A DNA stretch of 51,936 bases from Solirubrobacterales bacterium (GTDB lineage Bacteria > Actinomycetota > Thermoleophilia > Solirubrobacterales > JACPNS01), in contig JBMYXO010000004.1 of NCBI GenBank assembly GCA_049608465.1, positions 5,187 through 57,122 on the forward strand, in the 5' to 3' direction. The notes beneath the pieces were generated by a model. The model ran no database searches. It saw only the letters and a list, made by a program, of their open reading frames with translations, and was not told the DNA's origin. This document shows positions 10,211 to 51,936 of this stretch, piece by piece (position 1 is the first letter of the stretch; every line of letters starts with the position of its first letter). The translations under genes were made by a program, and so were the position numbers.

Positions 10211-12502
10211 ATGAGTCGTTTTGTTGAGCACCGCGTTGCGGTGCAGGTCGGTGAAACCGAGATGTCGTTCACGACCGGAAAGCTCGCCAAGCAGGCTGGC
10301 GGAGCTGTTGTAGTCCAGGGTGGAGACACCGTCGTACTTGTTACGGCGACCGCCGGAGCCGACCGAGGCATGGACTTTCTCCCGCTGACGGTCGACGTCG
10401 AAGAGCGGATGTACGCCAAGGGGAAGATCCCTGGTTCTTTCTTCAAGCGCGAGGGCCGTTCAGGCGAAAAGGCGACTTTGGTCTGCCGCATGATCGACCG
10501 CCCGCTTCGTCCGTTGTTCCCGAACGGCTGGCGTCGCGACACGCAGATCGTTGCGATGCCGCTGTCGGTCGACGAGATCAACCCGTACGACATCCTCGCT
10601 ATGAACGGTGCCTCAGCGGCGCTGATGATCAGCGACGTGCCGTACGTCACGCCGATCGGTGCAGTCCGCATCGGTCTGATCGAGGGCCAGTTCGTCGTCA
10701 ACCCGGACGAGGACTCACTCCTCCCGGAGGGCGAGAGCTCGCTTGACCTAGTTGTCGCAGGTAGCTCCGAGGCCATTCTGATGGTCGAGGCAGGCGCCGA
10801 CGAAGTGACCGAAGCCGAAGTGCTCGACGCACTCGACATCGCTCACACCGAGATCAAGAAGATCTGCGAAGCCCAAGAAGAACTGCGCAAGCTCGCCGGC
10901 AAGGAGAAGATTGAATTTGAGGCTCCGGCGGTCGACGAGTCACTGGTTACCGAAGTCGAGAGCAGCCACGGCGCCGCGATGCGCGAAGCCGTAACCGTTC
11001 CCGAGAAGCTCGAACGCTACGCCAAGATCGATGAAGTCAAGGCCGCGATCGGCGAGGCATACGCGCCCGCCGACGACGCCGACGAAGAGGTGGCCGAACA
11101 GCGCGTAAAGGACGTCAGCAAGGCGGCCGGTGCGCTCGAAAAGAACATCACCCGCCAGATGATTGCCGTCGAAAAGAAGCGTCCCGACGGCCGCGCCCAG
11201 GATGAAATCCGTCCGATCGAGTGCGAAGCGGGCATCATTCCACGTACGCACGGCTCGGGTCTGTTCACACGTGGCGAGACCCAGATCATGTCGATCGCAT
11301 CGCTTGGCACAACCCGCGAAGAAATGCGCCTCGACACGCTCGGTCTCGAAACCACCAAGCGCTACTTCCACCACTACAACTTCCCGCCGTTCAGCGTCGG
11401 TGAAGCTGGCTTCATGCGTGGTCCCAAGCGCCGCGACATCGGTCACGGTGCCCTCGCCGAGCGCGCCCTCGTACCGGTGATCCCGAGCACCGAGGACTTC
11501 CCGTACACGATTCGCGTCGTCTCGGAAACGCTCGAGTCGAACGGCTCGAGCTCGATGGGTTCGGTCTGTGGATCGACGATGAGCCTGATGGACGCCGGTG
11601 TGCCGATCAAGAAGCCGGTTTCCGGCATCGCGATGGGTCTGATCAAGGAGGGCGATGACTACATCGTGCTCTCCGACATCGCCGGCGTCGAGGACCACCT
11701 CGGTGACATGGACTTCAAGGTCGCCGGTACCCCCGACGGCATCACCGCTCTGCAGATGGACATCAAGATCACCGGTGTGACGATCGAGATCCTCAAGGAC
11801 GCCCTGGCCCAGGCCAAGGAAGGTCGCTCGTTCATCCTTTCGAAGATGTTCGAGGCGATCGATCGTCCGCGCGAGGAGATGTCCGAGTACGCGCCGCGCA
11901 TCAGCTCGATCAAGATCGACCAGGACAAGATCGGCGTCGTGATCGGCAAGGGCGGCGAGACGATCCGCGCGCTCTGCGAGGAGTTCGAATCCGAGATCAA
12001 CGTCGAAGACGATGGAACGATCCAGGTCTACAGCACCTCCGGCGCGATGGGCGAACGCCTCGTCGACCGGATTCGCTCGATGACCAAGGAAGTCGAACTT
12101 GGTGATGAGTTCACTGGCACGGTCGTGAAGACGACCACCTTCGGCGCCTTCGTCGAACTGACCAAGGGCACCGACGGACTGCTGCACATCAGCAACGTCA
12201 AACCAGGTGAGCGCGTTGAGACGGTCGAAGACGTCCTCGAACGTGGCGAGTCGATCGAGGTCCGCGTCGTCGAAGTCGATGCCGACCGCGGACGCATCGG
12301 TCTGCGTCTGTCATCAGACCCGGCGATTCAGGGCAAAAGCGCAGCTGAACTCGTCGACATCGGTGCAGGCACCGGTGGCGGTGGCGGCGGCCGTGACCGC
12401 GGTGGCGACCGTGGCGGCCGCGGCGGCGGCGGACGCAACGGCGGGGGCGGCGGAGGCCGTGACCGCGGCGAGCGTCGACCGCGCGAACGCAATCGCGACT
12501 AG
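10211..12502 (+). CDS. pnp: Polyribonucleotide nucleotidyltransferase (PNPase) with an Arg/Gly-rich C-terminal tail
   Basis: Two RNase PH domains, KH ('IGKGGETIRAL') and S1 ('GAFVELTKGTDGLLHIS'). The tail reads 'GGGGGGRDRGGDRGGRGGGGRNGGGGGGRDRGERRPRERNRD'. Confidence 0.97.
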   Translation: MSRFVEHRVAVQVGETEMSFTTGKLAKQAGGAVVVQGGDTVVLVTATAGADRGMDFLPLTVDVEERMYAKGKIPGSFFKREGRSGEKATLVCRMIDRPLRPLFPNGWRRDTQIVAMPLSVDEINPYDILAMNGASAALMISDVPYVTPIGAVRIGLIEGQFVVNPDEDSLLPEGESSLDLVVAGSSEAILMVEAGADEVTEAEVLDALDIAHTEIKKICEAQEELRKLAGKEKIEFEAPAVDESLVTEVESSHGAAMREAVTVPEKLERYAKIDEVKAAIGEAYAPADDADEEVAEQRVKDVSKAAGALEKNITRQMIAVEKKRPDGRAQDEIRPIECEAGIIPRTHGSGLFTRGETQIMSIASLGTTREEMRLDTLGLETTKRYFHHYNFPPFSVGEAGFMRGPKRRDIGHGALAERALVPVIPSTEDFPYTIRVVSETLESNGSSSMGSVCGSTMSLMDAGVPIKKPVSGIAMGLIKEGDDYIVLSDIAGVEDHLGDMDFKVAGTPDGITALQMDIKITGVTIEILKDALAQAKEGRSFILSKMFEAIDRPREEMSEYAPRISSIKIDQDKIGVVIGKGGETIRALCEEFESEINVEDDGTIQVYSTSGAMGERLVDRIRSMTKEVELGDEFTGTVVKTTTFGAFVELTKGTDGLLHISNVKPGERVETVEDVLERGESIEVRVVEVDADRGRIGLRLSSDPAIQGKSAAELVDIGAGTGGGGGGRDRGGDRGGRGGGGRNGGGGGGRDRGERRPRERNRD

Positions 12503-39510: not shown

Positions 39511-41073
39511 TCAGTCGAGTCCAAGCGCTTGGGGTGCCGCATCGCGCATCAGCGCCTCGATCTCTCGTCGTTGGCGGACCTGAGGTACTCCCCAATCGGC
39601 GCGGTAGTCGAAAACCTCGGTCAGCGGACGAGATCCGAATCGTCCGTCGATCAGTTCGAGCTGACCGGCGCCGACCAACGCAGGGTGGTGGTGCCCGCAG
39701 GTGCGTGCGAGTGCGAGCAGTTCGCCGCGCAACTGCGTGATGTAGTTGGCTGTTCGCACTGCTTTCAAGTCTGGGTCGAGGCCGCGAGTTCGCCATGGCT
39801 TGTGTGTAGTGACGCCGGTCGGACAATTTCCCGTGTGGCAACGCTGAGATTGGATACAGCCGACGGCGAGCATGGCTTCACGACCGACGTTGATCATGTC
39901 GCAACCCAAGCTGAACGCCATCAGCGCGGCATCGGGCAGGCCGAGCCGACCCGAACCGATGAACGTGACTTTGTCGGCCATCTCGCGTTCGGAAAAAATC
40001 GAGAACACACGCGTGAAACCGATTTTGAATGGCAGGGAGACGTGGTCGGTGAAGGCAAGAGGAGCGGCGCCAGTGCCGCCTTCACCGCCGTCGACGGTGA
40101 TGAAATCAACGCCGCGTCCACCGTCGGACATCTTGTCGGCGAGTTCCCGCCAGAACGTCTCTTTGCCAACTGCCGACTTGATCCCGACCGGCAATCCAGT
40201 GCGATCGGCGATCGACTCGACGAGCTCAAGTAGTCCATCGACGTCACTGAAGGCGGAGTGTGCGGGAGGGCTGATGCAATCTTTGCCGGCCTCAACGCCG
40301 CGAATACGGGCGATTTCCTCGGTTACCTTCACGCCCGGAAGGATCCCGCCCAGGCCGGGTTTCGCGCCTTGGCTGAGTTTGATCTCAATCGCCTTCACCG
40401 GCGCGGTGGCGATCGTCTCTTCAAGCACATCGAGGTCGAATCTGCCGCGCGCGTCGCGGCAACCGAAATAACCGGTGCCGACCTGGAAGACGATGTTGCC
40501 ACCCTGCAGGTGGTGCGGCGAGATACCGCCCTCGCCGGTTGTCTGCATGCACTGTGCCAACCGGGCGCCGCCATTGAGCGCTTGGATCGCTCGTGCGCTG
40601 AGCGATCCAAAGCTCATTCCGGAGATGTTCACGACGGATTCTGGTCTAAACGCCTTTTTGCGGCCGCGCGGGAGGCCGACGATCTTTGCGGCAGGCAAAA
40701 GGAAGTGATCCTGACCAGAATCGTTCTCGATGCTGTGCTCAGCGTCGATCATCGGAGGGAAGGCTTCGTGCTTGATGACCAAGTAGTTGGTCGAACGTTC
40801 CATCTCGTTGTCGCTGCCGAAGCCGAAACGATTGTTCTGGCGCTTCGACGACGCGTAGATCCAGCGACGGTGGTCACGCGTGAACGGGCGTTCCTCGTTG
40901 TTGTCGGTGACGATGTACTGGCGCAACTCGGGCCCTACCCGCTCGAGGATGTAGCGGAAATGCCCGACTATCGGAAAGATCCGTAGGATCGTGTGGCGAC
41001 GTTGCGTGACGTCGTACAGCACCACCAAGCCGAGCAATACCGCGACCGCCAGCCAGAAGATCAGCCAATCCAT
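39511..41073 (-). CDS. FMN-binding glutamate-synthase-family protein (GltB domain-2-like) with an N-terminal TM segment
   Basis: N-terminal 'WLIFWLAVAVLLGLVVL', 'MSFGSLS', 'TGEGGISP', 'KLSQGAKPGLGGILPG', 'DGGEGGTGAAP'. Confidence 0.85.
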   Translation of the reverse strand: MDWLIFWLAVAVLLGLVVLYDVTQRRHTILRIFPIVGHFRYILERVGPELRQYIVTDNNEERPFTRDHRRWIYASSKRQNNRFGFGSDNEMERSTNYLVIKHEAFPPMIDAEHSIENDSGQDHFLLPAAKIVGLPRGRKKAFRPESVVNISGMSFGSLSARAIQALNGGARLAQCMQTTGEGGISPHHLQGGNIVFQVGTGYFGCRDARGRFDLDVLEETIATAPVKAIEIKLSQGAKPGLGGILPGVKVTEEIARIRGVEAGKDCISPPAHSAFSDVDGLLELVESIADRTGLPVGIKSAVGKETFWRELADKMSDGGRGVDFITVDGGEGGTGAAPLAFTDHVSLPFKIGFTRVFSIFSEREMADKVTFIGSGRLGLPDAALMAFSLGCDMINVGREAMLAVGCIQSQRCHTGNCPTGVTTHKPWRTRGLDPDLKAVRTANYITQLRGELLALARTCGHHHPALVGAGQLELIDGRFGSRPLTEVFDYRADWGVPQVRQRREIEALMRDAAPQALGLD

Positions 41074-41189
41074 CCATCAACTATCGATAGCGGACCGGAT
41101 GTCGCTTCGAAAGGAGAGTTTTGGGGTTACACGAAACCATGTATAGTTGGTCACTCGCATTTTGAACCAAGTTCAACAGGAAGTGGAAA

Positions 41190-42698
41190 ATCTCCCCGAA
41201 GCGCGAACATACAGACGTTCTGATCGTCGGCGGCGGACTCTCCGGCATCGGCGCGGCCGTGCACTTGTCCAAGGAGTGCCCGAGCAAGAGCTACACAATC
41301 CTTGAAGCGCGAGACCGCACGGGGGGCACTTGGGATCTATTTCGTTATCCGGGCATTCGCTCGGACTCAGACATGTTCACGCTTGGCTATGACTTCAAGC
41401 CGTGGGAAGAGGCGAAGGCGATCGCGGACGGACCGTCAATCCTTTCTTACATTCGTGACACGGCCCGCGAGTACGGCATCGAGGAGAAGATCCGGACCAA
41501 TCACAAGGTGATCGGCGCCGAGTGGTCTTCGAGCGAGGCGCTGTGGATCGTCACCGTCGAACGCGCCACCGAGGGCGACGTTGTCGAGATGACTTGCAAT
41601 TTTCTGCACTTTTGCTCTGGTTACTACGACTACGACAGCGGTTATCTGCCCGAGTTTCCCGGGTTCGATCGTTTCAAAGGGCAGTTGATCCATCCGCAGC
41701 ACTGGCCCGAGGATTTTGACCACACCGGTAAACGTGTGGTCGTGATCGGCAGCGGCGCGACGGCAATCACGCTTGTTCCCGCAATGGCCAGGGAGGCGCA
41801 GCATGTGACGATGCTGCAACGGTCGCCGAGTTACATCTTCACGTTGCCGGCAAAGGATCCCATCGCCGATTTCTTGCGCCGCGTGCTACCCGCGAAACTC
41901 GCATACAGCTTGGTTCGTGGAAAGAACGTATTCCTGGCAATGGCGACATTTCAACTCAGTCGGCGTCGTCCCGGATTCGTCAAAAAGGTGATTCGCGAAA
42001 GCGTGAAGCGCCAACTGCCGGATGATTTTGACGTCGACAAACACTTCAAGCCCACGTACAACCCCTGGGACCAGCGCGTCTGCTTGGTTCCTGACGGTGA
42101 TTTTTTTCGCTCGATTCGAAAACAAAAAGCCTCGATAGTCACCGACGAAATCGAAACGTTCACCGAAACCGGAATCCAGTTGAAGTCGGGGGAGACGATC
42201 GAAGCAGATGCGATCGTCACGGCGACCGGACTTAACTTGAAGTTCCTCGGCGGCGCAAGTGTGCGCATCGACGGCGAGATCGTCGAACTCGCCGACAGAG
42301 TCTCGTACAACGGATCGATGCTCAGCGGATTGCCCAACGCGGCATACACCGTCGGCTACACGAACGCCTCATGGACGCTGAAGGCTGATCTCGTCAGCAA
42401 GTACGTCTGTCGACTGATCAATCACATGGACGATCACAACTACAACGTCTGCACACCGCAGCCGCCAAACCCGTCCGCGAAGCTCGAACCGATCATCGAT
42501 TTCTCATCTGGATATGTGCTGCGGTCTGTAGACAAGCTGCCGAAACAGGGCGACAAGAAACCGTGGCGATTGCACCAGAACTACCCGCTGGACGTCTTGA
42601 TGTTCAAGCGCGGAAGCTTGACCGACGGAACGATGAGATTCGATCGTGTGACGCCGCGTACGGAGCAGGAATCCGCCGCGGTGGCCGCGACCGGTTGA
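41190..42698 (+). CDS. FAD-dependent (flavin-containing / Baeyer-Villiger-type) monooxygenase. No canonical start lies upstream of the FAD motif; the proposed start is ATC 41190.
   Basis: The Rossmann motif 'DVLIVGGGLSGIG' lies upstream of the track start (GTG 41259). Also 'GGTWDLFRYPGIRSD' and a second dinucleotide motif 'VVVIGSGATA'. Confidence 0.7.
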   Translation: MSPKREHTDVLIVGGGLSGIGAAVHLSKECPSKSYTILEARDRTGGTWDLFRYPGIRSDSDMFTLGYDFKPWEEAKAIADGPSILSYIRDTAREYGIEEKIRTNHKVIGAEWSSSEALWIVTVERATEGDVVEMTCNFLHFCSGYYDYDSGYLPEFPGFDRFKGQLIHPQHWPEDFDHTGKRVVVIGSGATAITLVPAMAREAQHVTMLQRSPSYIFTLPAKDPIADFLRRVLPAKLAYSLVRGKNVFLAMATFQLSRRRPGFVKKVIRESVKRQLPDDFDVDKHFKPTYNPWDQRVCLVPDGDFFRSIRKQKASIVTDEIETFTETGIQLKSGETIEADAIVTATGLNLKFLGGASVRIDGEIVELADRVSYNGSMLSGLPNAAYTVGYTNASWTLKADLVSKYVCRLINHMDDHNYNVCTPQPPNPSAKLEPIIDFSSGYVLRSVDKLPKQGDKKPWRLHQNYPLDVLMFKRGSLTDGTMRFDRVTPRTEQESAAVAATG

Positions 42699-42727
42699 CG
42701 ACGGACGCGATTGCAGTCAGTCTCGCG

Positions 42728-43561
42728 TCAGGCTCGATGCCACGCTGAGTCGAATTCCGCCGAATCCACAGAAATACGCTTGAGCTCACGGATCGAGGGC
42801 TCAAATCCCTGTTCCTCCGACTTGCAGGCTCCGATGTCGATCAGCGCGGGCAGAATCGCGTTTTCCCAGAACGACATCGCCTCATCGATCGACCTCCAGA
42901 ACTGCGATTGATGAGGCACACCGTCGGCGCCACTTTCGTTCAGCAGCAAGATCAGGCCTTCCGGTGCCGCGCGCGTCAGCGAAAGTGCGTGAACGGCCTC
43001 ACTCAGCTGTTGCTTCGTGACGCCGTGGAATGCGGTGTCGAGTGCAACCGGGTCGGTCCCGAGGCAGCTGATCGCGGTTGCGTCCAAGTCGGCACCGATA
43101 TCTTGAAATTCCGCGAGCAGCGGGCCGAGAATCAGCCGGTCGACATTCCGTGCAACCGGTTCGAAATCCATCGCCCCGTGAGCGCCCTCTGGCGGGCCGA
43201 TGTCGTGCATCGCGGCAGTGATCACGCCGACCGCGACATCGCGAAAAAATGCGCTCTCAGCTTCTTCGGTGGTCCAAATACCTTGGGACACGATCGCACC
43301 GTCTTTGATGCCGGTCAGATGACAGAGCATTCCCTGTGGCCAGCGATCCTGAAATCGGTACGCGGCATGTAGTTTGTTCACGAAGTCCCAGTCTGCGCCG
43401 GCCATCTCGAAGGTGACGTTCAGTCTGTATCGCTTCGGACACGCGACGCCGACCAGCGTCTGATCGGAAAGCGGGCCCTCGAACAAGGATTGGGCGGATA
43501 CTGTGGATTTCTGCGGAAATGTCGGCATGAGTTTCGTCAGAAATTGGGTAGTCAAACCCAT
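42728..43561 (-). CDS. Hypothetical protein with two tandem ferredoxin-like (ABM/dimeric alpha-beta-barrel-like) halves
   Basis: ATG 43561 is chosen; the longer track ORF adds an Arg-rich extension. The internal repeat pattern is '...QGIWTTEEAESAFF...' versus '...QFWRSIDEAMSFW...'. Confidence 0.5.
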   Translation of the reverse strand: MGLTTQFLTKLMPTFPQKSTVSAQSLFEGPLSDQTLVGVACPKRYRLNVTFEMAGADWDFVNKLHAAYRFQDRWPQGMLCHLTGIKDGAIVSQGIWTTEEAESAFFRDVAVGVITAAMHDIGPPEGAHGAMDFEPVARNVDRLILGPLLAEFQDIGADLDATAISCLGTDPVALDTAFHGVTKQQLSEAVHALSLTRAAPEGLILLLNESGADGVPHQSQFWRSIDEAMSFWENAILPALIDIGACKSEEQGFEPSIRELKRISVDSAEFDSAWHRA

Positions 43562-43704
43562 CGTACAGTTTTGGCGTCGGTTTGTACGAACCTTTCTTGA
43601 GCGGTCGCGCGGACTACTGATCGATGCAGGCCGTCCTCGCCAACGCCGATAATCTCCGCGGTCGGTCCACCGTGACGAGGCGGGCCACGAACGGGAGATC
43701 AGAG

Positions 43705-45123
43705 ATGTCAACTGACGTCGTCGGTAGCGAGGAGCAGTCAGGCCAGAAGGCAACGGGGTGGCTCTGGCTTGTAGGGGCGGTAATCGCCGTTTCGGGAATC
43801 CTCTTCGGATACGACCAGGGAGTGATATCGGGCGCTCTCCGTGGTATCGAGAACAGCTTCAAGGTCGGTACGACCACGACGGAAATCATCACGAGCTGGG
43901 TGACGTTGGGAGCGCTCGTCGGAGCGTTGGTGGCCGGTGTCACGGCAGACCGAATCGGTCGCCGCTCAGCGCTGCTCCTGGCCGGCGGGTTGTTCGTGGT
44001 CGGCGCAGTCATTGAAGCTGTCGCACCCGGTGCGGCGGTACTTGTTGTCGGCCGGCTGGTGGTTGGCTTCGCTGTCGGTATCGCATCGGTGGCTGCGCCG
44101 CTATACGCCGCGGAGATGGCTCCCGCGCACCTTCGTGGCCGTTTCGTTTCGGGGTACCAACTGGGCATAACGTTCGGAATTTTTCTTGCGTATCTCGTCG
44201 ATGAGCTGATGGATAGTGCCGATTGGCGCCTGATGCTCGGTGTGTCCAGCTTCGTAGGGATCGCTCTAATCGTTGCGATCCTGCCCCTGCCGGATACGCC
44301 GCGCTGGTACCTGAAGGTTGGGCGCAGAAAAGATGCCGTGGAGGCGCTGAAGAAGGTGGATGCGCCGCCGGACGCCGAGGCTGCGATTTCGATCATCGAG
44401 GCCGAAGCGGCCTCGGACGTTCAGGCCAGTTGGGGGGTTGCGTTCAGCAAGCGGTGGCGCACACCATTGTTGATCGGCGTGGGGCTCGCGGTGTTTCAGC
44501 AAATCACCGGCATCAACGCGATCATTTACTACGCGGACAAAATCTTTGATGCTGCAGGTTTCACCTCGGTCGCCGACCAAACGATGGCAACGACTTGGGC
44601 CGTTGGCGGTGTGAACGTGCTCGCAACACTGATCGCCGTGATGTTTGTCGATCGCCTCGGGCGCAAACCACTGCTGCTCGCCGGATTGGTTGGAATGGGC
44701 TTAAGTCTCGCCGTCGTCGGAATAGCGTTTCAAAGCCTCGGCGAAGTACAGCATGGCGGGTCGTCGCAGGCCGCAAGCGATGCCGGCGTGATCACGCTCG
44801 TGGCACTGGTCGTGTACATCGCGTCATTTGCGTTCTCGATGGGACCGGTCGTGTGGACCATCATCAACGAGATCTATCCGCGCGAAGTGCGTGGACGCAT
44901 GGTTTCCGTCGCCACGGCGTTCAACTGGTTCTCAGCGTGGCTGGTGAGCCAGTTCTTCCTCACCCTGACCGACTCGATCGGTGAATCGGAGACGTTCTGG
45001 ATGTTCGCGGGCTTTTGCCTGGTCGCATTCTTCTGGATTCTCCGCTACGTGCCCGAAACCAAGGAGCGCACGCTTGAGGAGATCGAGGAGATGTGGCAGA
45101 ACAAATACAACGCCGCGGGTTAG
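43705..45123 (+). CDS. MFS sugar porter
   Basis: 'GYDQGVISGA', 'DRIGRRS', 'PDTPRWY', 'PETKERTLEEIE'. gggag lies upstream of ATG 43705. Confidence 0.9.
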   Translation: MSTDVVGSEEQSGQKATGWLWLVGAVIAVSGILFGYDQGVISGALRGIENSFKVGTTTTEIITSWVTLGALVGALVAGVTADRIGRRSALLLAGGLFVVGAVIEAVAPGAAVLVVGRLVVGFAVGIASVAAPLYAAEMAPAHLRGRFVSGYQLGITFGIFLAYLVDELMDSADWRLMLGVSSFVGIALIVAILPLPDTPRWYLKVGRRKDAVEALKKVDAPPDAEAAISIIEAEAASDVQASWGVAFSKRWRTPLLIGVGLAVFQQITGINAIIYYADKIFDAAGFTSVADQTMATTWAVGGVNVLATLIAVMFVDRLGRKPLLLAGLVGMGLSLAVVGIAFQSLGEVQHGGSSQAASDAGVITLVALVVYIASFAFSMGPVVWTIINEIYPREVRGRMVSVATAFNWFSAWLVSQFFLTLTDSIGESETFWMFAGFCLVAFFWILRYVPETKERTLEEIEEMWQNKYNAAG

Positions 45124-45222
45124 TCGCTCGACGCCAGCGAACGCTGACCTGTAGGTTCTATATGAATCGGTGACCAATCTGCTGAGCCTCCGCCGACAGG
45201 TTCTGATCCCGAGGATTGGCCA

Positions 45223-47184
45223 GTGCGAACGTGCGGGAGGTGGGTGACAGTCATCGAGGGCTTTGGAACGAACGAGCCTCTGTTGGAGCAGTTTCTCCAG
45301 TTTGCCCCCGATGCGATCGTTGGGATCGACCGGGACGGCATGATCGTGCTCGCCAACGCGCAGATTCACCAGGTTTTCGGTTACACCCGCGAAGAAATCG
45401 TCGGCAAGCCGGTCGAGACGCTGGTTCCGTTACAGAAACGCGGCCAGCACTTTCTGCACCGTGAGGAATACTTCAATGATCCAAAGACGCGGCCAATGGG
45501 CGCTGGGCTCGAACTCTTTGGTCTACGTGCTGACGGAACTGAGTTCCCCGCCGAGATCAGCCTTTCGAGCATCGAACGCGATGGTGACTTGATCGCGATT
45601 GCCGCGATCCGCGATGTAACGGCAAGAACCCGGGCCGAAAAGAAGTTCGAACAGCTGCTGGAGCTCGCGCCCGACGCAATCGTCGGCATCGATCGAAACG
45701 GGATGATGGTTTTGGTGAACGCGCAAGTCGAGCTGTTGTTCGGTCACCCACGCGAGGAAATGCTTGGACAGACAATCGAGATGCTCGTGCCGGAGCGATT
45801 TCGAAAGAGCCACTTGATGCATCGCTCGCACTACTTCGCAGACCCGAAGACTCGCGCGATGGGTGCGGGTCTCGAGCTGTACGGATTGCGCGCAGATGGT
45901 ACGGAGTTTCCCGCTGAAATCAGCCTTTCGAGTATTAAGACCGACGAGGGAACGATCGCGACTGCCGCAATCCGAGACATCACAGAGCGTGTGAAAGCCG
46001 ACAGTGTCAGGCAAAAGCTGGAAACCGAACTGAAGCTCAACCAATCGAGACGATTGGAAAGCGTCGGGCAACTTGCTGGCGGTGTCGCACACGATTTCAA
46101 CAACTTGTTGAGCGTGATTCTTAACTACGCGGCGTTTCTGAAGGAGTCGCTGGTAGAGAACCCGGAACTCAAGGCGGATGCGGAGCAAATCGAAAGAGCT
46201 GCGGAACGCGCAGCTGAACTGACGCGACAACTACTGATATTCAGCCGCCGCGAGGTCGTCAAGGCGGAGTCGCTCTCGCCCAATCACGTGCTCGATGATC
46301 TGAAGATCTTGTTGCAACGCACGTTGGGTGAGCAGATCGATTTTCGGACGAGTTTCGACTCGGATCTATGGCCGGTTTTTATGGATCGGGGCCAGTTCGA
46401 GCAGGTCGCGATCAACCTCGTGGTCAACGCCCGTGACGCAATGACCGGCGGTGGCGTTCTAGAACTGGAAACCTCGAACGTCGAGATCGACGAGGAGTTC
46501 ATTCGCTTCAGTCCAGACGAGATCAGCCCGGGAAAATACGTTCGTATCACGGTTGCCGATTCTGGGGGAGGGATGGATCGCGAAACCATGGAACGTGCAT
46601 TCGAGCCTTTTTTCACCACCAAAGACAAGTCGGAAGGAACCGGGTTGGGGCTGGCGACTGTTTACGGAATCGTCAAGGAGGCCGGAGGCAACATTTTCCT
46701 GTACTCCGAGGTCGGCCGCGGTACTTCCGTGAAAATCCACCTTCCCGCCGAACAAGGCAAAGCGTTCACGCCGGCGCATACGTCTGAACTTCCAGCGGCG
46801 GGTAACAGTGAACGCGTGGTTGTCGTTGAGGATGAACCGGCAGTGAGAACGATGGTGAAACGAATTCTTGTGAGCAACGGTTACGAAGTAGTGCAGTTTT
46901 CTAATGGGCGGGAGGCGCTCGCGTTCTGTGAATCACCGGACGTCCAAATTGATCTTCTGCTGACCGACGTGGTCATGCCAGAGATGTCTGGCGACGAACT
47001 GTTTGATCGATTGCATCGGGCTCGCCCGGATCTGAAAGCGCTATTCATGTCTGGCTACAGCGAAAAAATCATCGAACGACAGCGGGCGGGTGCCGGGGTT
47101 GCGGATCTGATCGAAAAGCCATTCACCAGCGGAGAGCTGCTTGAGGCCGTCCAGCGCGCGATCAATCGCTCCGCAGCCATCTGA
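45223..47184 (+). CDS. Soluble hybrid sensor histidine kinase (PAS-PAS-HisKA-HATPase-REC)
   Basis: Two PAS units, H-box '[11 protein letters not shown]', 'NLVVNARDA', '[11 protein letters not shown]', receiver 'VVVVEDEP...[14 protein letters not shown]'. No TM segment. Start uncertain (GTG 45223 or 45244). Confidence 0.9.
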
Positions 47185-47314
47185 CGTGGGTTCAATGCCG
47201 ACCCAAAACAGGTAGCTTGAAGGTGAGTTACATAACGCACTGGGACGATCCCCCTCACGCGCTGTAACGAAGCGGCTGGGGAATCCACCCCGTGCGTACG
47301 GAAGCAGGCTAAAA

Positions 47315-47686
47315 ATGACTGAACCGATAGATACGTCGGATCAGACCACGGTCGCTGAACGAATCTCGCGTGAGATCGAATCCCTGTACGCGGCGCACTA
47401 TCGCCACGGCCGCGGCAAGGCGACGACATACATAAACGGCAAAACAGTGCTCTGCATGATCGAGGGGAGCCGAAGCGATGACGAATCCGACGAGTTCGAA
47501 CGCGGCCACCAGAGCGCTGTGATCGACCGTCGAGTTGCCTTCCAGGTCAATCAAGAGGATGCGTTCACTGAAATGGTGGAGCGAATAACCCAACGCAAGG
47601 TCGTCGCCTTCCTCAGCGCCAATCAAGACAGCTTGACCTTTGCGGCCGAACTGTTTGTTCTCGATCGCGAACCAATTGAAAAATGA
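47315..47686 (+). CDS. DUF2294 (MpsC-like) family protein
   Basis: About 120 aa, 'ISREIESLYAAHYGRGKA...'-type N-terminus remembered for this family. The stop overlaps the sigma gene start (ATGA). Confidence 0.55.
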   Translation: MTEPIDTSDQTTVAERISREIESLYAAHYRHGRGKATTYINGKTVLCMIEGSRSDDESDEFERGHQSAVIDRRVAFQVNQEDAFTEMVERITQRKVVAFLSANQDSLTFAAELFVLDREPIEK

Positions 47687-48255
47687 GCGAGTTTTCTTCC
47701 ACCTCGACCGACGCGGAGTTGATGGCGCTAGCCAGACGGGGGGAGAGGGCGCCATTCGCCGCCCTGTACGGTCGATACTGGCCTCGAGCAGTGAAAATGG
47801 CGACGGTTGTGTGTGGTTCACGCGCCCAGGCTAAGGACATAGTTCGCGTTTCGTTCGGCGAGGCGTGGCGTACCCGCGATGAGTATCAGGCGGATCAGGG
47901 CACGGTGCACTCGTGGCTGTTGGGAATCGTCCGCGACCAAGCTGCATATGCACGAACGGGCGCCGTTCAATGGGGCCGCGAGATGTTTGTGGAAGAAGAA
48001 GACGAGAAATTCCGCGACGAACTGGAACCGGAGGAAGACATGGATATTTCGTCTGACGTCTCTGGCGCGATCGCGATTCTGTTGGCGGACTCCCCGGTCG
48101 AGCAACGTGAGGTTGTTGCAATGTCATTTTTTGGCGAACTCTCGCCTCAAGAAATCGCCCGCCATCTGAACATGCCCGAAGCGACTGTCGCCGGGCGGAT
48201 AAGACTGGGAATGGAAGAACTGCGGGCGCGAGAGTTCAACGTAGTCAAGAAATAG
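47683..48255 (+). CDS. ECF-type sigma-70 family RNA polymerase sigma factor
   Basis: Region 2-like 'FAALYGRYWPRAVKMA...WLLGIVRDQA', acidic linker, region 4 HTH 'LSPQEIARHLNMPEATVAGRIRLG'. Confidence 0.8.
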   Translation: MSEFSSTSTDAELMALARRGERAPFAALYGRYWPRAVKMATVVCGSRAQAKDIVRVSFGEAWRTRDEYQADQGTVHSWLLGIVRDQAAYARTGAVQWGREMFVEEEDEKFRDELEPEEDMDISSDVSGAIAILLADSPVEQREVVAMSFFGELSPQEIARHLNMPEATVAGRIRLGMEELRAREFNVVKK

Positions 48256-48338
48256 TCCGGTTGGCGAAATTCGGACATCGCGTTCGCGAAGTCTGAAAAT
48301 CGCCAGTAATCGCTTTCTGGTGGGGCTACGTTGGCCAT

Positions 48339-49247
48339 ATGGATCGCGAAGAAGTCAGCTTCCAAGTCGCCGGCGAAAACTGCGCCGCATGGCTGTATCA
48401 CCCGCAGGGCAACGACGAAACTTCATCGCCAATTGTGGTGATGGCGCACGGACTTTCGGGCACGAGACGCGATGGGCTTGGTGCATTTGCGGAGCGATTC
48501 GCGCGAGCGGGATTTGCAGCACTTGTATTCGATCATCGCGGGCTCGGGGACAGTGGCGGCGAGCCAGACAGATTCGTGCCAGCGCGCCAGCTTGAGGATT
48601 GGGCGGCCGCGATTGAATTCGCCCGAAGCTTGGAAGCGATCGATGCCGGACGTGTCGTGACGTTCGGGTCGTCGATGGGTGGCGGCAACGCTCTTGCCGC
48701 AGCGGCCGTCGATCGACGTGTTGCCGCAGTCATCAGCCAAGTGCCGTTCCTCGACCTGCGTCGGCAGGCGCATCGAAACTCGTTTCGAGTCAATCTGAAA
48801 ATTTTGACCAGCGCATTGCTCGGTGGATATTTACCGGCAGTGGGTCAGCCGGACGAAGCTGCATTCATCAATGCACCCGGGAGCGAGGCAGGATGGCGAC
48901 ACGTGGTCTCGATAGGCGAGAATTCCAAGTGGCGCAACCGTGTCTCGGCGCGCTGGATAGTTGGACGACCGTTCAATCCCGGAAGAGTCGCGTCAGAACT
49001 GCATTGCCCGTGGCTGGTTTGTGTTGGCGACGCCGACCAAGTGGCGCGACCCGGTCCAGCCATCAACGCGGCTCGCCGCGCGCCCCACGGCGAACTTCGC
49101 GTATATGAGGGGGTCGATCACTTCGACATCTACGACGGGGCCGAACATGAAACTTTGGTCGCCGACCAAATCGCATTTCTACGCCGGCATCTGGTCGAGC
49201 CAGGCAATGCCAATCTCAGTGGAGCTGTTCTGCCAGCCCGACGATGA
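48339..49247 (+). CDS. Alpha/beta hydrolase
   Basis: 'VVMAHGLSG', nucleophile elbow 'GSSMGG', late 'DH' pair. Confidence 0.8.
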   Translation: MDREEVSFQVAGENCAAWLYHPQGNDETSSPIVVMAHGLSGTRRDGLGAFAERFARAGFAALVFDHRGLGDSGGEPDRFVPARQLEDWAAAIEFARSLEAIDAGRVVTFGSSMGGGNALAAAAVDRRVAAVISQVPFLDLRRQAHRNSFRVNLKILTSALLGGYLPAVGQPDEAAFINAPGSEAGWRHVVSIGENSKWRNRVSARWIVGRPFNPGRVASELHCPWLVCVGDADQVARPGPAINAARRAPHGELRVYEGVDHFDIYDGAEHETLVADQIAFLRRHLVEPGNANLSGAVLPARR

Positions 49248-49644
49248 TGCCTTCTGGGCCACGTAGGTAACAGAGACGGTAAATGTCTTCGTACTGTGCG
49301 ACCTCGCCGAGCAGTTCTCCGTCGTGTTTGGCGATAGCGCTGGCAACCGTCTCGTCGATGTCGTCAACGGCGAACATGACGCGTCGCAGACCAAGTGCGT
49401 TGGGCGGTGCATTTTCTTGTTCGGCCCTAACGGCCTCGGGCGAGTGGAATTTGGTCAATTCCAACCGGCCGTGTCCGTCGGGGGTTTTCAACATGACGAT
49501 GTCGGCTCGAACGTTCTCTAGTCCCACTGTTTGATCCACCCATGGTCCCTCGACCTGGGTCGCGCCATCGAGAACCATTCCGAGATCGATGAAGAACGTC
49601 TGAACGACCGCGAGGTCGTCGACGACGATGAGCACGTTGTCCAT
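49216..49644 (-). CDS. VOC/glyoxalase-family protein
   Basis: 'MDNVLIVVDDLAVVQTFF', 'LRRVMFAVDDIDETV'. ATG 49644 (or GTG 49659) is preferred to the track start at 49830. Confidence 0.75.
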   Translation of the reverse strand: MDNVLIVVDDLAVVQTFFIDLGMVLDGATQVEGPWVDQTVGLENVRADIVMLKTPDGHGRLELTKFHSPEAVRAEQENAPPNALGLRRVMFAVDDIDETVASAIAKHDGELLGEVAQYEDIYRLCYLRGPEGIIVGLAEQLH

Positions 49645-49731
49645 GCGCTGGATTGCCACGAGCTCGAGGCTAGCTGAATCTTTCGATGCTGAATAGGGCA
49701 ACGATTCGAACTCAACGTATATTGAACGCCT

Positions 49732-50286
49732 ATGGGCAAGCTCATCTACGCGAACAACTGCTCGCTGGACGGATTCATCGAGGATGTGAACGGAAGTTTC
49801 GAGTTTTCCGAACCTGACGACGAGGTGCATCAGTTTTGGAACGACATGCTGCGACGGACCGGAACCCAGATTTACGGACGGCGCCTGTACGAGACGATGG
49901 CCGTCTGGGAAACCATGTCCGTCGAGAATGAACCCGCCGTTATGCGTGAGTTCGCCGAGCTTTGGCGGGGCCGCGACAAGCTGGTCTATTCGCGAACGCT
50001 CGACGCAGTCTCAAGTGCGCGCACCACGTTGGAGCACGAGTTTGATCCGACCCGGATACGTGAGCTCAAGACCGGCGACGAAGACCTCTTGATAGGCGGT
50101 CCCGAACTTGCCGCCGCCGCGTTCAGCTCAGGGCTCGTCGACGAAGTCGGACTGATGATATGGCCGGCGACGCTCGGAGGCGGTAAACCTGCGTTGCCGA
50201 CCGGGCAGCGGATTCAGCTCCAGCTGGTGAACGAACGTCGGTTTCCCAGTGGCGCTGTCTTCCTGAGCTACTCGGTCCAGAGCTAG
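49732..50286 (+). CDS. Dihydrofolate-reductase-like (RibD C-terminal domain) protein; same-family match (candidate paralogue) of 27453-28103
   Basis: 'SLDGFIED', 'LLIGGPELAAAAFSSGLVDEVGLMIWPATLGGG'. Confidence 0.75.
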   Translation: MGKLIYANNCSLDGFIEDVNGSFEFSEPDDEVHQFWNDMLRRTGTQIYGRRLYETMAVWETMSVENEPAVMREFAELWRGRDKLVYSRTLDAVSSARTTLEHEFDPTRIRELKTGDEDLLIGGPELAAAAFSSGLVDEVGLMIWPATLGGGKPALPTGQRIQLQLVNERRFPSGAVFLSYSVQS

Positions 50287-50354
50287 TCGTATCCGTTAGT
50301 TCACATAACGTCAATTGCCACGCCAGATGCCGAAGGGGATAGGACATATGGCTA

Positions 50355-50651
50355 GTGGGAGTAAAAGTACGCACTCAGTTGACCGCCACGTTCGAGGGGT
50401 TCAAAGAACCAAGAACGTTTGAAAAAGACGGCCGCACCATCCCTGTGCAAGGGAAGCTTCAGTTCCTCGTGCGGGACCAAGAGTCTGGTGCTCTAGACGT
50501 TCACGAGTTCACCCAAAAGGCTTGGCAGGCGGGAGGCGGTCCGCCCTACATGGATATCGAAAACGGAACGTGGTTCACGATCACCGGAACCGTGGACCTC
50601 GGTGCCGATCGACCGTGGCTCCGCATCGAGAACGTCGAGCAAGCTGCATGA
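50355..50651 (+). CDS. Hypothetical 98-aa protein, possible OB-fold ssDNA-binding (gene-V-like) protein
   Basis: GTG start with agga 10 nt upstream. Beta-rich pattern 'VKVRTQLTATFEGFKEPRTFEKDGR...WFTITGTVDLG...LRIENV'. Confidence 0.45.
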   Translation: MGVKVRTQLTATFEGFKEPRTFEKDGRTIPVQGKLQFLVRDQESGALDVHEFTQKAWQAGGGPPYMDIENGTWFTITGTVDLGADRPWLRIENVEQAA

Positions 50652-50866
50652 ACGCTCAGCTCGCGGTCGACACGTTAAAGCTGCTCAACCGGCTCGCAGT
50701 CGATCAAGGAATAACGCTAAGCATCAACTACAGCGATCAGGCTCCTGTCGAAACTGCGTGGCACGTCTCTACGTCTACGGGAGAGGGTGCGCTCGGAGCG
50801 GACCTGCTCGAAGCACTGCAAGAAGTCCAGCAGCGAATCGTACGTTCGCACGAAATTCCGGCGTAG
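50648..50866 (+). CDS. Hypothetical 72-aa protein
   Basis: ATGA overlap with the preceding stop. Third-position GC about 62% by hand count. Confidence 0.4.
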   Translation: MNAQLAVDTLKLLNRLAVDQGITLSINYSDQAPVETAWHVSTSTGEGALGADLLEALQEVQQRIVRSHEIPA

Positions 50867-50879
50867 TGCGTTGGTACAA

Positions 50880-51605
50880 GTGCGAAAAACATCGGCGAGC
50901 GGTAGCAATAGCCACAGCGGTTTCATTAACGCTCTGGCTATTGCTGCCATCGTCGCATCCTTCCTCTTTCTGTCCGTTCTGAAACCGAACGTTGCGCTTG
51001 CGGTTGAGTCGACCACGTACACGATCGACAGAACGCTAACTGAAACCAGAGGCGTCCACACGAACAGCGGTTCAGTAACCGCGACTCGGTCCGGGGCGCT
51101 CGCTGCGTGCTTGGCTGCAGACGTAATACCTGACCTCGAACTTCTCATCGAAGCCAATCCACTCGGTCTAGAAAACGACTACTCGCTCAACGTAAGAAGC
51201 ACAAGTTCCGTCATGGGATCGTCTAGCGGTGTCAACAAAATCGGCGTTGGCGTGGTCGTTGATGGCGTGTTAGAAGCTCGCTCGACACGTTACGGAACTG
51301 CGCAGGGTGGAACACTCAATCTCGACACCGTAAACACCGAACTGAATATCCCCGAACTGGATGTGACGACTACCCACACGGTCGGGATCGCTGTCTGCAC
51401 AACCTACGGAACTTCCCTGAGCACCGGAAACATGACCCTCGAAATTACGGGTCAAAAGTCAACGGACGTAATAGCGGTAACAGCAGTTGATGATCCCGTC
51501 GCGAACTCGGACAACACCGGGGTCGAAGACAACCTCGCTCGGCTCGCGGGACTCATAGCAGCCGCGATCGCCTCGTTCCCACTAACAAAAGCTTTCCTCC
51601 TGTGA
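50880..51605 (+). CDS. Secreted protein with a C-terminal hydrophobic anchor (start uncertain, 50787-50880)
   Basis: Signal-like 'RKTS..FINALAIAAIVASFLFLSVLKPNVALA|VE', Thr/Ser/Gly-rich beta-type body, C-terminal 'LARLAGLIAAAIASFPL'. Confidence 0.5.
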   Translation: MRKTSASGSNSHSGFINALAIAAIVASFLFLSVLKPNVALAVESTTYTIDRTLTETRGVHTNSGSVTATRSGALAACLAADVIPDLELLIEANPLGLENDYSLNVRSTSSVMGSSSGVNKIGVGVVVDGVLEARSTRYGTAQGGTLNLDTVNTELNIPELDVTTTHTVGIAVCTTYGTSLSTGNMTLEITGQKSTDVIAVTAVDDPVANSDNTGVEDNLARLAGLIAAAIASFPLTKAFLL

Positions 51606-51712
51606 ACGTCGACGCGTTCACGGAAGGATTGGTCCTCGGCCTGACTGTATGGCTGACGACGCTGGCCGGAACAGCAGGCATTCGGCTGTTCCGAAAAGTC
51701 CTAAGCATCTGA
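51602..51712 (+). CDS. 36-aa single-TM peptide, coat-protein-like (not on the supplied ORF track)
   Basis: GTG overlaps the upstream stop (GTGA). 'VNVDAFTEGLVLGLTVWLTTLAGTAGIRLFRKVLSI': acidic N-terminus, TM segment, basic C-terminus. Confidence 0.4.
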   Translation: MNVDAFTEGLVLGLTVWLTTLAGTAGIRLFRKVLSI

Positions 51713-51729
51713 GAGGGGGTGAACAAACT

Positions 51730-51936
51730 ATGCAGACAATCAAGAATCTCGCCTCACGTGGCTACGTGAAGGCTGGTGTCGTTGGTTCCGGAGCCGCTCT
51801 CGCGGTACCGGGCCGCGCTCTCGCTGCGCAGGACTACAGCGACGTCGGCACCGCTGCAACCGGAGAGATCACAGCCGTGATCCCGGTCGCGCTTGGTGTT
51901 CTTGCGCTTGCCATCGGAATTCCGTTGGCGATTCGC
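51730..51936 (+). CDS. Major-coat-like precursor with a signal peptide, 3' partial
   Basis: ggggg(tg) SD upstream of ATG 51730. 'MQTIKNLASRGYVKAGVVGSGAALAVPGRALA|AQDYSDVGTAATGEITAVIPVALGVLALAIGIPLAIR...'. The frame is open to the window end. Confidence 0.5.
   Translation, partial: MQTIKNLASRGYVKAGVVGSGAALAVPGRALAAQDYSDVGTAATGEITAVIPVALGVLALAIGIPLAIR

Follow-up and report, generated by a model that had tools for sequence, protein, structure and literature searches.

The last 1.6 kb of the DNA stretch analyzed here is very probably the left end of an integrated filamentous phage. The stretch, which spans 51,936 nt and is hereafter called the window, comes from a bacterium whose encoded proteins assign it to the order Solirubrobacterales (Actinomycetota, Thermoleophilia), and positions 50317-51936, beginning ~30 nt past a gene of the RibD_C family, appear to carry the first genes of a prophage of the order Tubulavirales. 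An earlier reading of the window (hereafter, the first-pass annotation) had pointed to an inovirus-like gene module in this region, and this proposal is now supported by syntenic relatives that encode a Zot ATPase, by a match of the coat protein to that of phage PH75, and by a triad of attachment (att) sites. Only the first 1.6 kb of the window copy are visible, with the genes for Zot, Rep, and pIII/pVI, as well as attR, lying beyond the window end.

Such an element would represent a new lineage within a familiar type of virus of which very little is known in Gram-positive hosts, and would extend the filamentous phages to Solirubrobacterales, an order of soil bacteria that are abundant and hard to culture. 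In the literature examined, no integrated prophage with a defined attachment site has been described for the filamentous phages of Gram-positive bacteria. No concept is overturned, given that inovirus prophages and integration at dif sites are well known in Proteobacteria. Both lysogeny and its mechanism are directly testable with the comparison set at hand, in which the occupied site can be set against four empty ones and against a circular relative with the same core.

Gene module at the end of the window

The module encompasses five genes, all on the plus strand, that we denote g1 to g5. The first of these, g1 (50355-50651), starts with GTG and encodes a 98-aa protein with a predicted oligonucleotide/oligosaccharide-binding (OB) fold, a putative single-stranded DNA (ssDNA)-binding protein of the pV/RstB kind; g2 (50648-50866) encodes a 72-aa acidic soluble protein that is peculiar to the window copy; g3 (50880-51605), a 241-aa secreted or membrane protein with an N-terminal signal or transmembrane (TM) segment and a C-terminal anchor; g4 (51602-51712), a 36-aa peptide with a single TM segment that resembles pVII/pIX and is a putative minor coat protein; and g5, which starts at 51730 and continues past the window end at 51936, at least 69 aa of the predicted precursor of a pVIII-like major coat protein. 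As the first-pass annotation had it, the genes are tightly packed, and both their coordinates and the spacing were confirmed. The ATG of g2 lies on the stop codon of g1 (ATGA at 50648), an overlap that suggests translational coupling of the two genes; g3 and g4 overlap in the same manner (GTGA at 51602), and the gaps between g2 and g3 and between g4 and g5 are 13 nt and 17 nt long, respectively. The ribosome-binding site of g5, GAGGGGG, is the strongest in the module.

The protein features described in the first-pass annotation stood up for the most part. Hydropathy analysis revealed the hydrophobic segments that had been assigned to both termini of g3 (residues ~12-40 and ~219-240), and the 36-aa g4 peptide does have an acidic N-terminus followed by a TM segment and a basic C-terminus (RLFRKVLSI). 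For g5, the AXA-type signal peptide (cleaved between ..ALA and AQDYSDVG..), the acidic mature N-terminus, and the TM helix that had been described are all present; the basic C-terminus lies outside the window, which cuts the gene ~8 codons short of the stop, with R69 alone visible. Judging from the homologs described below, which end in ..AIRV(L/F)KRISH, the tail is likely to be basic as well. The start of the element had been placed at 50290 and has to be moved: the junction between host and phage DNA is at 50316/50317, within an att core at 50298-50325.

Searches of the Pfam and PHROG databases with g1-g5 detected no significant family and, for g1, no match even at E-values up to 1. In particular, no match in these databases places any of the five proteins in the Spd/Tra or secretion families that the first-pass annotation had named as the competing assignment. 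The module contains no meaningful repeats; an 11-mer, GTCGTATCCGT, is common to the window and one of the relatives (L004, see below) but is not enriched.

Circular relatives with the same gene order

A full HMMER scan of 1.84 billion representative proteins with g1 as the query yielded two real homologs, 98 and 100 aa long and ~35% identical to g1, with which they share a conserved GKLQFL motif. These homologs are the products of the first genes in two metagenomic contigs, L002 (Logan SRR12113397) and L004 (JGI 3300020045). The termini of these contigs overlap directly, by 30 nt in L002 and by 121 nt in L004, and we therefore consider them to be circular genomes of 5994 and 5270 nt, respectively, which, like the genomes of Tubulavirales, are circles of ~5-10 kb with colinear modules. 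All the long genes in both are located on one strand. The g1-like gene (98-100 aa) is followed by a gene for a g3-like protein with the same C-terminus (153-185 aa), one for a g4-like TM peptide (44-46 aa), and one for a g5-like coat protein (77-83 aa). Further along are genes for a pIII-like protein (415 aa) in which a signal peptide and an acidic/Gly-rich linker precede a C-terminal TM segment, a pVI-like protein with multiple TM segments (105 aa), the Zot/pI morphogenesis ATPase (334-336 aa), and a protein of 321-323 aa (4119-5090 in L002 and 4347-5312 in L004), and then small genes.

In BLASTP comparisons, the C-terminal 33-48 residues of g3 showed 42% identity to the second gene product of L002 and L004, ending in ...PL(T/S)(K/R)AF(L/V/I), g4 showed 53% identity to the third, and g5 showed 59-69% identity to the fourth. 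The occurrence of homologs of four of the five window proteins, with the order kept, on two independent circular contigs is more than chance. The g2 protein has neither a family match nor a counterpart in L002, L004, or Propionibacterium phage B5. The two relatives differ from the window copy in that they are episomal or circular forms rather than integrated ones, lack g2, and have a shorter g3 (153-185 aa as against 241 aa); the identity levels of 35-69% imply different species or genera. The similarity of L002 to the window extends to the att core, CATAACGTCAATTGC, which is found at the same place upstream of g1.

The first-pass annotation expected a Zot-like ATPase downstream of the module. 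This expectation was checked on L002 and L004, where genes for a pIII-like protein, a pVI-like protein, Zot, and the ~320-aa protein do follow, with the Zot ATPase in the expected position in both genomes; the window copy is visible only to within g5. The assignment of the L002 Zot is clear: it matches PF05707 with 76.5 bits (cutoff, 20.3) and phrog_1675, ‘morphogenesis (protein I of M13)’, with an E-value of 3.9e-28, and among the best 25 of 90 records in a tblastn search, only inoviruses were found, including f1 gene I at 36% identity. The 321-323-aa protein encoded after Zot has no match in Pfam, PHROG, or PDB; L002 and L004 share in it the conserved motifs RIDxTADLRF and GRxGRxTxGRMYDKG. 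The cores of these motifs (RIDxxAD and GRMYDKG) recall the Rep_trans family of rolling-circle initiators, and the protein is a probable candidate for the replication protein. No family was found for the 107-aa and 62-65-aa genes of L002, and neither L002 nor L004 contains a gene of the size of a secretin.

Coat protein and adjacent membrane proteins

When a profile built from g5 and its two homologs was compared to all PDB sequences, the sole significant match was 1HGV, the major coat protein of the inovirus PH75 (E = 8.4e-4). Mature residues 6-42 of 1HGV align with profile positions 38-74, and the alignment begins just past the predicted signal cleavage site of g5. The match to this Thermus phage is marginal (22.9 bits), and the comparison is limited to the coat gene. 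The L002 homolog also aligns along its entire length with phrog_1646, ‘major coat protein’ (E = 2.4e-5), and window g5 matches the same family at 0.036. With its signal peptide, acidic N-terminus, single TM segment, and a basic C-terminus that can be predicted from the homologs, g5 has the organization of a Tubulavirales coat protein, and, on the evidence of the profile, is an inovirus-type major coat protein. A tblastn search of GenBank phages with the window and L002 coat proteins produced no match.

A different reading of the same proteins is that the module belongs to a conjugative element, or to a pilus or secretion operon in which g5 would be a TrbC/VirB2-like pilin. In its favor, the L002 coat homolog shows a sub-threshold similarity to the Pfam TrbC/VirB2 family (E = 0.035, 14.7 bits, with a cutoff of 27.9), and small proteins with a signal peptide and a TM segment are generic. 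However, the syntenic relatives are circles of 5-6 kb that encode a Zot/pI ATPase and no transfer genes, and the only significant PDB match of the g5 profile is to an inovirus coat protein, with no Tra/Spd match. Given the Zot-bearing circular relatives and the inovirus coat match, we rejected the conjugative or pilus operon, which we consider hardly credible, in favor of a filamentous phage.

The remaining membrane proteins fit into the same layout. The size and position of g4 match those of Orf3 and Orf4 of phage B5, which are annotated ‘putative structural protein’. The g3 protein is clade-specific and an orphan beyond its C-terminus, and its gene occupies the place of the Orf2 region of B5. 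It is not the equivalent of pIII, given that the relatives encode a separate pIII-like protein of 415 aa after the coat protein; an accessory role in the virion or in assembly, with attachment to the membrane, is probable for g3.

Predicted OB fold of the g1 protein

The first-pass annotation described g1 as a beta-rich protein of the size of the gene V protein. The size holds, and an OB fold is predicted; by sequence, g1 is not a member of the gene V protein family (Ff pV, Pfam Phage_DNA_bind). Structure prediction, which the first-pass annotation had proposed for all five proteins, was run for g1. With an alignment of three sequences, AlphaFold2 produced a model with pLDDT of 89.3 and pTM of 0.74, whereas the prediction from g1 alone was poor (pLDDT 53). 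The best Foldseek matches of the model are all OB folds, namely, RPA32, Stn1/Ten1, PriB, and the ssDNA-binding proteins of Streptomyces and Mycobacterium; among the viral models, ssDNA-binding proteins and, weakly, an RstB-like protein were retrieved. The match probabilities were 0.95-1.0, but with E-values of 0.005-0.1 and TM-scores of 0.4-0.54. We thus consider the OB fold of g1 to be predicted with high confidence and a role in ssDNA binding to be plausible.

Several points weigh against the latter role. Only one of the five AlphaFold models reached this level of confidence and the Foldseek E-values are weak; g1 has no sequence match to any ssDNA-binding family in Pfam, PHROG, or a PDB search with the g1 alignment. 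Furthermore, ORF1, the positional equivalent of g1 in B5-like phages, has been detected in virion preparations, and, by analogy, a structural role for g1 is possible.

Neither g1 nor g3 retrieved anything but itself in word-indexed searches of 5.8 billion proteins. Two giant proteins of ~3,500 aa, P0003 and P0006, scored against g1 (E-values of 4.9e-16 and 7e-5, respectively) over g1 residues 7-65, which correspond to window positions 50355-50550. We rejected both as homologs: in P0003, which also contains MBG (YGX-type) domains, the short motif TFxGFxGSRTYGxxNxxIxYQG is repeated more than 20 times, and the score reflects a motif resemblance summed over repeats.

If the module functions as its counterparts in other filamentous phages do, g1 would coat the progeny ssDNA, in the manner of pV or RstB, and g4 and g5, together with the pIII/pVI pair expected downstream, would be inserted in the membrane. 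The Zot-like ATPase would then assemble the coat proteins around the DNA, and the filament would be extruded without lysis; in a monoderm host, a secretin would not be needed.

Integration site and empty sites in sister strains

Four contigs of sister strains (L006-L009), one of them from the NCBI assembly GCA_049617295.1, contain the same RibD_C gene followed by no phage module. These empty-site loci are 96-97% identical to the window up to position 50316, where the similarity ends, and the break falls within a core of 13-15 nt that is also present just upstream of g1 in the circular genome of L002; specifically, window positions 50304-50318 (CATAACGTCAATTGC) are identical to the stretch preceding the L002 g1. 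On the plus strand, the empty site reads TAG TCGCATCCGTAGTTCACATAACGTCAATT up to the break and ATCGTGCGTTGG after it, and the window site likewise reads TAG TCGTATCCGTTAGTTCACATAACGTCAATT and then GCCACGCCAG; in L002, the sequence just upstream of g1 is CCGTTTGTTTCCATAACGTCAATT up to the same point, followed by GCTGAGG. On the minus strand, the intact attB of the sister strains is ACGCACGATAA-TTGACG-TTATGTGAACT, and attL of the window (50298-50325, junction at 50316/50317) is a hybrid dif-like 28-mer, TGGCGTGGCAA-TTGACG-TTATGTGAACT, that matches attB in 22 of the 28 positions. The left arm and the central region of this hybrid appear host-like, and its outer arm appears to be phage-derived. 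Compared nucleotide by nucleotide, these sites form the attB/attP/attL triad of site-specific integration. Because sister strains carry empty-site alleles and the core is shared with the phage attP, we conclude that the integration is genuine, and that the element was, as the strain comparison indicates, gained or lost recently within the population.

The window comes from a metagenome-assembled genome (MAG), and the assembly breaks soon after the junction, which could raise the suspicion that host and phage DNA were joined by an assembly artifact. An independent Logan assembly of the run SRR27204695, however, reproduces the junction at 100% identity, and therefore the junction is not chimeric; moreover, homology breaks exactly in the core that is shared with the phage attP and the empty sites. 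A chimera accordingly appears extremely improbable, and we rejected it.

Another question is whether the insertion, although of a true inovirus type, is a decayed or truncated remnant, or a satellite consisting of the structural block, that no longer makes filaments. The two assemblies that cover it both break off inside g5, at points no more than 5 nt apart, with nothing visible past this gene; the GC content of the module (56.9%) is lower than that of the host (60.6%) and the relatives (59-63%); and g2 is an extra gene that is not found in the relatives. On the other side, none of the five reading frames is disrupted, starts and stops are coupled, and the ribosome-binding sites are good; the att core is undamaged as well, and the absence of the element from sister strains that are 96-97% identical implies a recent insertion. 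On balance, we consider a remnant improbable. Two points weigh against the prophage reading as a whole, namely, that the prophage could be truncated or defective past the window end, and that the family is thin, with three members.

The family remained small in all searches. Pattern scans with g1, g3, the coat protein, and Zot covered IMG/VR, the species genomes of GTDB, and a collection of JGI metagenome contigs and detected no relatives; the patterns were back-translated from g3, g1, the g1 alignment, the coat alignment, and the Zot alignment and were complemented by a DNA pattern for the coat TM segment. By the searches used, the proteins, which are essentially orphans, are without relatives in IMG/VR and among 185,579 species genomes. 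The sole contig retrieved by exact look-ups of g1, g2, and g4 was a Logan contig of 3.6 kb, the end of which lies 5 nt past that of the window. Partial copies of this kind will thus escape inovirus detectors that rely on markers.

Dif-likeness of the site and possible involvement of XerCD

Filamentous phages of Proteobacteria exploit the host XerCD/dif system via pseudo-dif sites (PMC3025954), and the organization of the attachment site described here raises the possibility of a similar route. We give an even chance to integration mediated by the host XerCD at a dif or dif-like site. Under this scenario, attB would be the host dif or a dif-like site, the phage would carry a pseudo-dif attP, and the host XerC and XerD recombinases would insert the phage, as they do with CTXphi, VGJphi, and phiLf in Proteobacteria. 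The more inclusive proposal, that the element belongs to an unsampled lineage of Thermoleophilia filamentous phages that lysogenize via the host XerCD/dif, is tentative and falls somewhat short of even odds.

The candidate host dif sequence is ACGCACGATAATTGACGTTATGTGAACT. We compared attB to the published dif sites of Escherichia coli (GGTGCGCATAA-TGTATA-TTATGTTAAAT), Bacillus subtilis (ACTTCCTAGAA-TATATA-TTATGTAAACT), and Frankia alni (CACGCCGATAA-TGCACA-TTATGTCAAGT), all from PMC3025954. It is identical to these at 15, 18, and 18 of the 28 positions, respectively, compared with 17-19 of 28 among the references themselves. The XerD arm of attB matches the published dif sites in 9-10 of the 11 positions, and attB, attL, and the L002 attP have the same spacer, TTGACG. 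Each empty-site locus contains the pattern ATAA-N6-TTATGTNAANT exactly once, namely, at the site, whereas the window lacks it at up to one mismatch; 0 of 100 shuffled sequences matched it. The cumulative GC skew rises across the whole window, that is, the skew is positive throughout, and in all four empty-site relatives, it changes from plus to minus at the site.

An alternative with the same phage and the same site is that integration is carried out by a recombinase or Rep of the phage itself, with the likeness to dif being a coincidence or reflecting a pseudo-dif. The weak fit of the XerC-side arm to dif is in line with this possibility, as is the conservation between attP and attB, which is best on one arm and the spacer rather than on the XerC arm; the 107-aa and 62-65-aa genes of L002 and the 321-323-aa protein are without an assigned family, and L004 lacks the site. 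Conversely, no integrase-family domain was detected in any L002 protein or in the one L004 protein that was scanned (321 aa), and genomes of 5.3-6.0 kb leave little room for such a gene; the ATAA-N6-TTAT palindrome, the XerD arm with 9-10 matches of 11, and the uniqueness of the site in all the sequences examined also speak for Xer. Taken together, an own recombinase is possible but rather unlikely.

The involvement of XerCD has several observations against it as well. The XerC-side arm of attB is poor compared to published dif sites, with 4-6 matches of 11, and L004 has no comparable site. The change of the GC skew at the site is confounded by the transposon-like right flank of the sister strains, and the site is a putative rather than an established dif of the chromosome. 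Finally, the phage attP resembles the host site better on the presumed XerD arm, which we take to be the reverse of the pattern in the well-studied Xer-exploiting elements. If XerCD-mediated integration is borne out, no inovirus that exploits Xer would, to our knowledge, which comes from a literature check that was not exhaustive, have been shown in a Gram-positive host before this one. Its attB, attL, and attP are already fixed to the nucleotide, and the hairpin in the phage attP, described next, could mean that integration involves an ssDNA form, as in CTXphi.

Positions 12-43 of L002 form a hairpin with a 13-bp stem, GTCAATTGCTGAGGT-GAAG-ACCTCAAATTGAC, in which the left arm is contributed by the right half of the att core (GTCAATT...). 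When folded as ssDNA, the hairpin has a predicted energy of -10.1 kcal/mol (z = -3.3); no such hairpin follows the core in the window copy. Several functions are compatible with the folding prediction: the hairpin might serve as an attP in the form of folded ssDNA, as in CTXphi, but also as an origin, a packaging signal, or a terminator.

In the sister strains, the right side of the dif-like site is occupied by a minus-strand operon that abuts the phage site (1769-5022 in L008, 4109-5007 in L006, 3982-4737 in L007, and 2084-3423 in L009). The operon encodes a Mu-transposase_C/rve protein, a TniB-like AAA_22 ATPase (248 aa), a 402-aa protein, and a 251-aa helix-turn-helix protein and, by these products, is a Tn7/Tn5053-like transposition module. 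Transposons of the Tn5053 type target resolution sites and, if such targeting holds here, mobile elements of two kinds may have this site as a common hotspot.

Comparison with known filamentous phages

The first-pass annotation referred to Propionibacterium phage B5 as the sole cultured filamentous phage of Actinobacteria; this has been superseded, given that Philemon and the isolates MINOG1-9 exist (bioRxiv 10.64898/2026.07.11.737922). Among the filamentous phages of Gram-positive hosts, only B5, Philemon, CAK1, and the nine isolates MINOG1-9 have been characterized (bioRxiv 10.64898/2026.07.11.737922), and metagenomic surveys have proposed several inovirus families for monoderm hosts. Phage B5 (Bifilivirus B5, Paulinoviridae), to which Philemon and MINOG1-9 are related, resembles the element described here in infecting a host of the Actinomycetota, in its small genome with the genes on one strand, and in the lack of a secretin. 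The B5 gene products are, in order, 96, 219, 32, 27, 57 (coat), 485, 90, 308 (Zot-like), and 405 aa (Rep) long, and the order is the same as in the present family: a gene for ~96-98 aa, a region of ~220-240 aa, peptides of ~30-36 aa, the coat protein, a large pIII-like protein, a pVI-like protein of ~90-105 aa, a Zot-like ATPase, and replication.

In contrast to the gene order, sequence similarity is near nil. BLASTP comparison of all ten B5 proteins with those of the window, L002, and L004 showed 40% identity between the coat protein and g5 over 30 aa and 28-29% for the pVI-like protein, and the Zot proteins are alike only around the Walker A motif; B5 was not among the best 25 of the 90 records in the tblastn search with the L002 Zot. 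The B5 coat protein has no signal peptide, unlike g5, the 405-aa replication protein of B5 is unrelated to the 321-323-aa protein of L002 and L004, and the host classes differ (Actinomycetes for B5 and Thermoleophilia here). No description of B5-type phages as integrated prophages was found in the literature examined.

Families have reportedly been defined on the basis of gene content by Roux et al. The element shares with B5 the monoderm host, the lack of a secretin, and the gene order, but not the gene content or sequence. Because sequence similarity to B5 is almost absent and the B5 coat protein lacks a signal peptide, we did not place the element in Paulinoviridae and instead regard it as a lineage of Tubulavirales with monoderm hosts.

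With phages of the CTXphi, VGJphi, phiLf, and Cf1c type, the similarity lies in the possible route of integration, given that these filamentous phages lack an integrase and are inserted at dif by the host XerCD via a pseudo-dif attP (PMC3025954); in addition, the OB-fold product of the first gene, g1, recalls RstB, with a weak fold match. These phages differ in having diderm hosts, unrelated proteins, and another pattern of arm conservation, and the Xer dependence of the present element, unlike theirs, is deduced from the sequence of the site only.

Genomic neighborhood of the element

The last host gene before the element (49732-50286, plus strand) encodes a 184-aa protein of the RibD_C/dihydrofolate reductase family (PF01872, E = 8e-12). 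Its mates in the cluster at 90% identity are annotated ‘MAG: dihydrofolate reductase family protein [Solirubrobacterales bacterium]’, and because the mates of IF-2, NusA, MiaB, and RibD_C in such clusters are all named as Solirubrobacterales MAG proteins, we place the host in Thermoleophilia and not among the classical Actinomycetes. No tRNA or other Rfam family was detected in the window, which excludes integration into a tRNA gene. Outside the module, the window consists of ordinary chromosomal DNA, with nusA, infB, truB, ribF, pnp, the RNase J gene, ftsK, cinA, recA, miaB, miaA, dapF, hflX, murT, and accessory genes. The polyribonucleotide nucleotidyltransferase (10211-12502) scores 960 bits with the generic family and 712 bits with TIGR02696 (guanosine pentaphosphate synthetase I/PNPase), under the cutoff of 1107 bits.

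The ends of the window and of the Logan contig L001 (3540-3569) both fall inside the coat gene and are no more than 5 nt apart, and an imperfect palindrome, GCCATCGGAATTCCGTTGGC, is located at 51910-51929, just before both assembly ends. In the protein database, a length of 57,122 nt is given for the source contig, compared with 51,936 nt for the window. The shared assembly break suggests that variants or forms of the element co-exist in the sample. Over the last ~10 kb of the window (41000-51936), the GC content drops from ~0.60-0.64 to 0.55-0.58. This part encodes an oxidoreductase similar to flavin-containing monooxygenases, a sugar transporter of the major facilitator superfamily, a PAS hybrid histidine kinase, an extracytoplasmic function sigma factor, an alpha/beta hydrolase, a glyoxalase-like protein, and RibD_C, and is more variable than the upstream housekeeping block.

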